Positions 9,001 to 12,000 of a stretch of DNA of 64,000 bases are shown here, one piece after another (the stretch's first letter is position 1; each line of letters begins with the position of its first letter). The stretch is taken from the NCBI RefSeq assembly GCF_017348835.2, contig NZ_CP071375.1; one strand, given 5' to 3'. Made by a program: the position numbers. The stretch comes from Escherichia coli. Lineage in GTDB: Bacteria; Pseudomonadota; Gammaproteobacteria; Enterobacterales; Enterobacteriaceae.

Positions 9001-12000
9001 TAATCCCATTCATCAGGGTCTTTATCGCCGCCATAATCAAACAACAGATTAGTCACCATTGTGGTAACGCATTCCAGCAACACAGCTTCATGCGGGTTAA
9101 TGTCTGCATGAATTAATTCATCAAGATGTTGCCAACGCTCCACCGTGCGCCAGTGCGCCGGACGGCCTTGCCGATGATGTTCTATCCGTGCAGCCATCTC
9201 ATCATCAAGGATTTGCGAGGTGGCGATATACAGAACCTGTGAAGAGTCCCCAATAAGCGCCTCTGCGTGGCGACTCTTCCCGCTCCGTGCGCCCCCCGTC
9301 ACCAAAATCATCATACCTACTCCTGATTCAATTGTATGATGGTATTCATTGAACAGAACAATGGATCCCCCACCGTTGCTGACCGCAAAACATTTACACG
9401 ATTAATACTGCGCGTAATATAATTAAAAATCCAGCATTCTCAATCCATTACGAAAGAAGATGGCATTGCGGAATAGCCCGACTTCCTCGTGTTAACGTAT
9501 GACAAAATGCGTCATTGACAGCGGTTTCTCTGGAATGACAGATTTCATTCAGATAATGGATTAATGCTACAGTCCCACCAGCCGGACCAGTCAGCAAACG
9601 GGCATTGTGTTCTGCAATCAAAATTACCGTCGTTCCCTCAGAATGAGCGAGCCATTCTGGTACGGATATCTCGCTTTCAGCTGCTATCAATAGCTGCACT
9701 GAATAATCGCTATACGCATCTGATAATGATTGCACAGACCCACCGTTAAGAGGCTGGAAATCTTGCTGCCAGTCCTCACGGATAAAACCGCAGCCTCTAC
9801 AGTGCACTGTTGGTCAGTGCCTGCGAAGCGGACATTATCGCGCTGGTGCTTAATGCGGACGCACCGTGGTCACCTTTTTCGCCAGGCTTTACCTCGTCAA
9901 TGAATCGCCCGGTCATTGGAGTAGTAACCAAAGCAGATTTAGCCAACATGGAACAAATATCTTTGGTGAAATGTTGGTTACGGGAAGCTGGAGCGCACAA
10001 CGTGTTAGTAACCAGTGCGGTTAATAACAATAGAGTTGCAGAACTTTTTGCCTTGCTGCATATAGAAGAAGTCTGTCGCTAATTTCGACAGGTCCTCAGA
10101 TGGGAATGATGACGGTGATACACAGAAAAGAATCAATGAGCAATGAGGGTTGCCAAGCAACCCTCATTGAATAAAACAGGAATTACTTCGCTTCGCCGTT
10201 TTTCATTTCGCCCATAGCTTTCAGCTTTTTGGAGATATCACGGCGTTCTTTGGAGAGCTCGGCATTTTTGATGATGTAATCGTCAACACGATCTTCATAG
10301 TCACCTTTCATGCTAGCGATGATGCCCTGGATTGCTTCAACGCTCATCCCCGGCTTGATGTAATCACTCAGGTTGTCCAGCAGCAGGACGCGCTTCTGGT
10401 TGTCACGGATCTTTTTCTCAACGTCCTGAATTTCACGTTGCAGTTTGTTCTTACGACGGAACAGGCGAACAAATTCCAGTACGTCCTGGAATGAAGGCTT
10501 GGTAGTTTCCATTTTTATACCCCTGATAATGTGAGAGTCGGATTCGTTTAAGCAACCGCTATTCGTTAGGGCCAACATTACTCATAGCTGCCGCAGATGA
10601 CAATGCTTTTATCCCTTTTCACTATCATACCCTTTATCCTTGCTGAATCGAAGCAGCAGCAAGATGATTCTGAAGTTCAGGAATTATTTGCGCAAGGCCC
10701 GGCAAATCAGATTCGATAGCAACTCAAGCTGATGTGCCGTTTCCATGTTCAGCCACACATAACCATAGATTGGTGTTTCCACAACCTTCAGGTCATGGTG
10801 GTTATTGAGCAACTGACGCAGCTCTTCCACAGCATCGTTCAATTTTTCCGTATTAGCAAAAACCGGCTGAGGATTACCTTCGTACAGAGCATGAACAAGG
10901 CTCAGCAGTATTTGCTGCATCATGTGCTGGGTATCACGAAGTTTTTGCGCGTTCAATAACACGAAATGGCTGGGGCGCGTGGCCCAGTATGCATTGATTT
11001 GCAACTCCAGCATACAAACCAGATTGCGGTTAATGGTCTGGATACCTTCATATATCGATTTTGGAATACGGGTTTCTTTGCTGGCGGGCGCAATCAGCCC
11101 ACGCATTTTTACGGCATCGGTCAAGAGTTTTTGTAGATGGCTTTCCAGACGTGGGCGTTCGAGTAAGTTCGGTGAGAATGCAGATTGATAGACCCGATTA
11201 TACTCGGTCAGACTTTTCGCCAGTTGAATACGCCAGTGGATGAACGCCCGTTGTGGCCAGATACCGGTAAACAACATTGCCAGTAAAGAGCCGAGGATCA
11301 CATCGCCGCTTCGCCATAACGCCGTATCAATTTCACCTGTCGGGGACCCCACAACAATTGCCAGCGTCACCCCAATCAATAAACCTTGATACGGTTTCTT
11401 GCCCAGCGCCAGCCAACCGCAAAGGAACATGGCCGCCGCGCACCAGACTAACATCAGCGGTAACGAGATTAACTCCAGTTGCAGAGCGATAAGACCTAAA
11501 ATCGAACCCAACACCGTACCGCCAATACGCTCAAAGGCGCGAGGGACAACGTTACCCCAGAACGAGATTGGCCCCATAATCACCACCATGGTGACCAGCG
11601 GCCAGGTGCTTTCCGGGATAGTAAACAGGCGGATAATGAGAAAAGTGAGCAGGAATGCCAGCGCGACCCGAGTACCATGCACAATGCGGTAATGGCGGTA
11701 TACCCGGATTTCAAACGGGCTTAATGACTTATCGGCACGCACGCAGAAACTCCGTAATGAAGATTAAAAGCGCTCATAACTCATCTGTCGGCCAGAAGGC
11801 GCGCCTCTGAATTATCCGACGGACAAACCGGGAACAGTGTAATTTCCCGGCAGGAGCGAAAAAATTGAAAGGCGCATCTTACTCTTTTCGCTTTCAAAAA
11901 AAGAGTGGTCATCGCGTTAACACACCGCCCTGAGATGAATTAGTGATGTTTTGGCTGCACCGCAACATACATTTCGATATCCCAGTACCCATCTTCCGCG

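Follow-up and report, generated by a model that had tools for sequence, protein, structure and literature searches.

A 119-codon reading frame beside cobU in Escherichia coli is most likely a doubly truncated remnant of cbiG

The interval between cobU and tmaR

The window, a 64,000-nucleotide stretch of the E. coli contig NZ_CP071375.1 (assembly GCF_017348835.2), contains a minus-strand open reading frame of 119 codons lying between cobU and a fragment of the GTPase gene pduV (Table 1). An independent ORF listing returned coordinates identical to those given in an earlier note made from the sequence alone. The GTPase remnant that the note had placed beside the frame was likewise recovered as a EutP/PduV match by Pfam, annotated as a pseudogene in RefSeq. 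Over the 868-bp cobU–tmaR interval the window matches strain PE164 at 100% identity, and the RefSeq gene order of that strain, projected onto the window, reads cobT, cobS, cobU, a 'hypothetical protein' (the ORF), an EutP/PduV pseudogene, tmaR (yeeX), yeeA and sbmC. Public databases already list the exact 119-residue protein under the name 'cobalamin biosynthesis protein' or 'hypothetical protein' (RefSeq), and the feature as such is ordinary.

Table 1. Features of the cobU–tmaR interval in the window and of related loci in other genomes
Feature	Sequence	Coordinates	Strand	Remarks
cobS (ORF listing)	window	8029..8808		259 aa from an upstream ATG; 40-nt overlap with cobU
cobU	window	8769..9314	minus	first intact gene of cobUST; selected unit abutted by the relic
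Spacer, relic stop to cobU start	window	9315..9447	minus	133 nt; conserved blocks, promoter-like site, cobU Shine-Dalgarno
Promoter-like site in spacer	window	9416..9443		TTGAGA (9443-9438), 16 nt, TATATT (9421-9416)
119-codon ORF	window	9448..9807	minus	GTG start, stop included (ORF listing)
ORF body, cbiG-derived	window	9448..9788	minus	codons 34-145 and stop of the Escherichia 145-codon cbiG' relic; 91% aa identity to KY203 relic residues 34-145 (tblastn)
Deletion junction	window	9784..9788		microhomology AAAAC, 5 bp, common to the cbiG' and pduV sides
pduV (EutP/PduV GTPase) 3' fragment	window	9786..10082	plus	PF10662 positions 59-142 of 143, E = 4e-23
ORF head	window	9789..9807	minus	GTG and ~6 codons, antisense to pduV codons ~50-56
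Inverted repeat	window	10141..10169		perfect, 13 bp, CAATGAGGGTTGC-CAA-GCAACCCTCATTG; between the convergent pduV fragment and tmaR (yeeX)
Mini-ORF, 44 codons (MAASFSSFI...)	L003 (KY203)	3575-3702	minus	same position in L004, L008, L009, L011, L014, L018-L021
IS1 joining pocR directly to pduQ	L003 (KY203)	5104-5801		pduF-pduP lost
STnc230 (Rfam RF02075)	L004 (E. albertii)	4465-4548		between pduF and pocR
STnc230 (Rfam RF02075)	L012 (E. fergusonii)	6427-6509		between pduF and pocR
cobU pseudogene	L004 (E. albertii)	6436-6960		deletions of 92, 9, 43 and 1 nt, internal stops
Locus with intact cobalamin riboswitch	L012 (E. fergusonii, GCA_023277125.1)	7608-8471		113 bits; relic followed by ldtA
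pduC	L022 (E2348/69)	5222-6820		annotated truncated pseudogene
K-12-type stump	L002	3152-3295		9-nt in-frame deletion
K-12-type stump	L023	3019-3162		9-nt in-frame deletion

The composition of the ORF was resolved by a column-by-column comparison of the window with the cbiG' relic of strain JNEC-KY203 (L003) and an intact pduV (L015). The window tracks the relic up to ~9788 and pduV from 9784 on, the two sides sharing the microhomology at the junction. On this mapping the ORF is a chimera, with a head antisense to pduV and a body formed by the relic: codons 8 to 119 (112/119) correspond to cbiG' codons 34 to 145 on the original strand of cbiG, and the antisense-pduV share is limited to the first seven codons (~19-22 nt, GTG included). 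A derivation of the ORF from pduV, on either strand, was rejected, as collinearity with pduV is confined to 9784/9789-9807 and the rest is cbiG'. No Shine-Dalgarno motif was found upstream of the GTG at 9807 (upstream sequence cactgaccaacaGTG, also given as cactgaccaaca), and the position of the GTG is occupied by GAG in E200086, a strain with the same junction. The start is fortuitous.

Sized against the coordinates of E2348/69, which carries the full region, the deletion that produced the junction spans ~17.3 kb. Compared with that genome, the window lacks relic codons 1-33, the upstream leader with a 44-codon mini-ORF, the cobalamin riboswitch, pocR, pduF, pduA-U and pduV codons 1-49. An Rfam search of window positions 8500-10700 at E ≤ 1 returned nothing, and hence no riboswitch remnant. 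The pduV fragment, annotated in PE164 as a 5'-truncated pseudogene (RefSeq), is missing ~49 N-terminal codons, and the neighboring 90-aa frame represents the C-terminal two-thirds of PduV, which is 147 aa long when intact (KY203 and E2348/69).

Two minor features of the interval are recorded alongside. The inverted repeat between the pduV fragment and tmaR is probably a shared terminator; it was not flagged by a simple terminator scan. At the other end, RefSeq starts cobS 12 codons later than the ORF listing, giving 247 aa and a 4-nt overlap with cobU.

Relation to CbiG

The earlier note had found no recognizable domain in the frame. This holds for Pfam, which gave no match to either the 119-aa or the 145-aa form even at E ≤ 10 and did not recognize CbiG_N (PF11760), but not for NCBIfam, whose CbiG model NF004463 matched the window ORF weakly (E = 0.0055, 15.9 bits, model positions 40-125 of 351) and the 145-aa parent allele clearly (E = 5.4e-19, 68.6 bits, positions 1-125 of 351). 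Both scores lie below the equivalog cut-off of 546 bits, and full-length coverage is absent. BLASTP, one of the checks proposed in the note, matched the window ORF to a full-length CbiG (P0056, E = 6e-4), a 358-aa protein with Pfam CbiG_N, CbiG_mid and CbiG_C whose gene is flanked by cbiF and cbiH within a complete cbi operon (L013). An exhaustive phmmer search of 1.84 billion representatives retrieved, beyond the Escherichia relatives, true enterobacterial full-length CbiG and CbiG fragments at 36-44% identity. Close homologues of the ORF family are confined to Escherichia and Shigella. The proposal of a small ORFan falls with these homologues and with the homology to the N-terminal region of CbiG; conservation of the frame and homologues, whose joint absence the note had named as decisive, were both found.

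The alignment places the 145-aa form collinear with the first ~115-135 residues of CbiG, the cobalt-precorrin-5A hydrolase of the anaerobic cobalamin pathway, with the same N-terminus (MKTIKPESIALFCL). The conserved CbiG block GATGIAVRV is lost, reading AAESEISV with a 7-residue gap. By sequence homology, the ORF family represents the first ~40% of cbiG, closed by a new stop, and the ORF is a fragment of a CbiG family member, not a functional member. Unlike CbiG, the relic is without ~60% of the protein, namely the middle and C-terminal CobE-like domains, and the window copy further lacks residues 1-33 and the native start. The first strand and helix of the modeled domain lie within the lost residues. 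The relic occupies the same strand and the same chromosomal slot (cob riboswitch to cobU) as the Salmonella-type cbiA-P operon, but, in contrast to the true cbiF-cbiG-cbiH arrangement of L013, it is flanked by neither cbiF nor cbiH: the order is riboswitch, mini-ORF, relic and cobU at full loci, and pduV', relic and cobU in the window. E. coli lacks the rest of the cobalt-precorrin-5A pathway. A full-text literature search found no paper describing the cbiG relic.

Structurally, AF2 modeled the 145-aa form with moderate confidence (pLDDT 77.6); the input alignment included true CbiG, so that the model leans toward the CbiG fold. Foldseek against the PDB returned no match at E ≤ 0.001, and the top match by probability and TM was the CbiG homologue 3EEQ (prob 0.87, TMq 0.48; rank 10, E = 0.15). 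Model and match weakly suggest a retained fold.

The riboswitch-bearing parent locus

Upstream, the same DNA in JNEC-KY203 runs on into an ORF of 145 codons, with a cobalamin riboswitch and pocR ahead of it. Across loci the order is constant: pocR, an RF00174 aptamer (108-113 bits by Rfam at full-architecture loci), a conserved hairpin (ACCCUGA-AAGGA-UCAGGGU) at a cbiA-type start (MAA...), a 44-codon mini-ORF, a relic of 144/145 codons, the 133-nt spacer and cobUST. This order was seen in E. coli, E. whittamii, E. marmotae and E. albertii, and in two divergent genomes labeled E. coli that form separate entries in a species-representative genome collection; a truncated cbiG lies upstream of cobU throughout the genus Escherichia. 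The mini-ORF, listed in no annotation, overlaps the relic ATG with its TGA (ATGA) and has an identical length in six Escherichia species, although 45% of its alignment columns vary. When CbiF, CbiH, CbiO and CbiP of the L013 operon were compared by tblastn with the riboswitch–cobU interval, only marginal matches to the CbiF C-terminus emerged (E = 0.07-0.4, and one match of five residues, HYRKL/HYSKL); CbiP gave nothing. Where the mini-ORF 3' end and the last ~25 codons of the relic come from is thus inferred.

This arrangement resembles the Salmonella cob leader, in which a B12 riboswitch and a ribosome-binding-site hairpin at cbiA exert translational control, in that the aptamer, the hairpin and the cbiA-type start are kept upstream of the relic. 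It differs in that the Escherichia riboswitch controls only the 44-codon mini-ORF, coupled by ATGA to the cbiG' relic; riboswitch, hairpin and mini-ORF are all absent from the window. In E. fergusonii, a riboswitch is followed by an ORF of 49 codons and a relic of 156 codons that overlap by 20 nt, as cbiF and cbiG do in the true operon, and cobUST is missing. The intact E. fergusonii riboswitch is thus left with no obvious target among B12-related genes. The sRNA STnc230 was also noted in E. albertii and E. fergusonii, where Rfam places it between pduF and pocR (Table 1).

Sequence evolution of the parent ORF is fast. Between species the relic keeps 68-72% amino-acid identity, compared with 88-99% for its neighbors, and 41% of its alignment columns vary, against 32-36% in the spacers and 14% in the aptamer. 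A codon model on the tree returned an omega of 0.61 for the relic (p = 5e-4 against 1), 0.17 for cobU and 0.05 for pocR, with a tree about twice as long for the relic as for its neighbors (cobU 0.95, pocR 1.06 substitutions per codon). By block, omega was 0.41 in the CbiG-homologous parts and 1.05 elsewhere, the blocks having been chosen post hoc so that the p-values are optimistic. Pairwise simulation of amino-acid differences against neutrality was significant for some pairs only, and the tree-based codon model was therefore relied upon. Within E. coli, six full-architecture alleles segregate at 9 synonymous and 13 nonsynonymous sites (pN/pS ~0.47).

Despite this near-pseudogene rate, the relic shows zero stops or frameshifts across six Escherichia species. 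When neutral substitution was simulated on the fitted tree, all six relics remained open in 1.5e-4 of runs, and the mini-ORF in 0.11. Of the six sequences tested, three came from a peptide-pattern scan independent of downstream frame integrity, those of E. albertii and E. marmotae were taken from protein databases, and E. coli KY203 was chosen from a DNA search. Indels follow the same division, with a single one of 3 nt in 569 nt of ORFs and at least six of 1-11 nt in 223 nt of flanking spacers. E. albertii offers an internal comparison: its cobU is a true pseudogene (75.6% nucleotide identity to the E. coli gene), and the relic beside it is intact, with 78.7% identity. In that locus cobT is missing and cobS, like the relic ORF upstream, is intact; the dS of E. 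albertii cobS against E. coli is about 1.3, compared with ~0.5 for pocR, which suggests a mosaic origin.

Because no stop or frameshift occurs in six species (P ~1.5e-4) in spite of a rate near that of a pseudogene, the parent frame appears to be under selection, its residues being weakly constrained. Either a small protein under weak selection or a requirement for translation of the stretch would fit. The features of a translated leader (a riboswitch with a ribosome-binding-site hairpin, coupling, and a frame kept without residue conservation) occur together at full-architecture loci only. The sense strand has G in excess of C in every 78-nt window, unlike a rut site, a composition that does not favor Rho-based polarity on cobUST. 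It is conceivable, at somewhat short of even chances, that in riboswitch-bearing lineages selection keeps the cbiA'-'cbiF mini-ORF translated together with the cbiG' ORF coupled to it, whether as a weakly constrained, B12-regulated small protein derived from the CbiG N-domain or as a conduit that depends on translation to relay the state of the riboswitch to cobUST, and that the frame in the window is a decapitated escapee from this selection. The untruncated relic, with pseudogene-like divergence and a frame never lost in six species, would offer a natural test case of selection on translation versus selection on protein; this riboswitch-bearing parent ORF is more interesting than the window copy and is a modest by-product of the analysis.

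Erosion across E. coli and the standing of the window copy

Among 5,426 complete E. coli genomes, the full 438-nt relic is present in 645 and the junction type of the window in 201. About 3,150 carry a stump of ~163-172 nt of K-12 type beside the yoeA/CP4-44 island, with or without IS5. O157 retains a 127-nt match beside ISEc8, a state not counted separately, and the remaining genomes have ≤ 55 nt or no match (no match in 792). These amount to at least five truncation states, which are independent events, and every truncation enters from the upstream side, sparing the cobU-proximal end. In RefSeq the shorter stumps upstream of cobU are pseudogenes ('cobalamin biosynthesis protein, missing N-terminus'), with annotated lengths of 144 nt in the K-12 type and 108 nt in the O157 type. 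The window holds the same relic with the same 3' end, but keeps a longer piece (341 nt) whose frame runs into antisense pduV as far as a GTG. It is called an intact CDS and escapes the pseudogene label because the frame happens to reach that codon.

Comparison of these loci traces a sequence of events in three steps. Before the Escherichia species split, the stretch of cbi operon separating the cobalamin riboswitch from cobU was reduced, leaving the 44-codon mini-ORF, which retains the cbiA start and whose 3' end resembles cbiF, then the first ~120-135 codons of cbiG with a new stop (144/145 codons), and the 133-nt spacer before cobUST. In the lineage of the window, the ~17.3-kb deletion at the 5-bp microhomology then fused relic codon 34 to antisense pduV codon ~50 and took away the start and ribosome-binding site of the relic along with the mini-ORF, the riboswitch, pocR, pduF and pduA-pduU. 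By chance, the frame would have remained open for seven more codons into antisense pduV, where the GTG gives it the look of a 119-codon gene. Because there is no Shine-Dalgarno motif and no dedicated promoter, and the start is not conserved, this frame is probably not usefully translated and drifts neutrally; its DNA presumably persists because the adjoining cobUST promoter and spacer region is under selection. The ORF is very probably, then, a doubly truncated, non-functional cbiG remnant, inert in the window strain. It is truncated relative to functional homologues, is without its native start, mini-ORF and riboswitch, and has relatives in varied states of erosion. Between the window allele and its nearest alleles, 10 codons differ nonsynonymously and 1-2 synonymously, which is consistent with neutral drift, the counts being too small for significance.

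One point against inertness is that the frame is open in the 60 best matches among the 201 genomes of the junction type, as well as in divergent alleles of 119 aa (P0018, P0027). Together with the omega of the parent ORF, significantly below 1 and lowest in the CbiG-homologous blocks, and with the confidence of the AF2 model and its resemblance to 3EEQ, this would favor a product that is still made and useful, such as a small CbiG_N-like protein, shortened at its N-terminus, that binds a corrinoid intermediate while CobUST salvages cobinamide. In other species, the signs of selection on the parent frame may likewise indicate a residual role for the window product. Such usefulness is nevertheless very unlikely given the loss of the first 33 residues, with the first strand and helix of the modeled domain, the unconserved start devoid of a Shine-Dalgarno motif, the excess of nonsynonymous differences on the window lineage, the replaced and shortened GATGIAVRV motif, the failure of Pfam CbiG_N to recognize the ORF, and the further cutting or loss of the relic in most E. 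coli.

The DNA could instead matter irrespective of its frame, as a promoter or 5' leader of cobUST or through read-through from tmaR, with the ORF incidental. All independent E. coli truncations leave the cobU-proximal part, the spacer just downstream of the relic stop carries conserved blocks and the promoter-like TTGAGA-16-TATATT, and Lawrence and Roth (J Bacteriol 1995) reportedly found several promoters for K-12 cobUST, upstream of which only a stump of the relic remains. However, the promoter-like site lies in the spacer, outside the ORF; a promoter scan gave no more matches than shuffled sequence; and the ORF body is as variable as the intergenic spacers or more so. A role of the DNA alone is thus very unlikely. 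The earlier note had also offered a scrambled 5' part of the GTPase gene read on the wrong strand, or mere noise. The ~22-nt overlap of the ORF with the pduV fragment is the one observation in line with an opposite-strand pduV frame or a chance ORF, and the probability is close to nil: pduV codons 1-49 are absent from the window, not scrambled, and the remaining 112 codons align collinearly with both cbiG' alleles and CbiG, having been inherited from a real gene. The note's general idea of debris from a decayed region was right, the decayed gene being cbiG. The cbiG remnant thus remains the preferred reading.

For the window itself, the result removes a false 'ORFan' and matters little. It also shows how annotation pipelines come to call a chimeric gene fragment an intact CDS. 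The locus constitutes a dated erosion series of the cbi-pdu region in E. coli, from full pdu with riboswitch and relic, by way of the type with the 17-kb deletion, down to the stumps of K-12 and O157, and this series bears on the long-standing account of B12 synthesis loss and reacquisition in enteric bacteria.

Further variation was recorded around these loci. In KY203, IS1 has joined pocR directly to pduQ, and in E2348/69 pduC is annotated as truncated (Table 1). The K-12-type stump has 85-88% DNA identity to full-length E. coli alleles, a divergence high within one species that suggests old allelic lineages or recombinational import.
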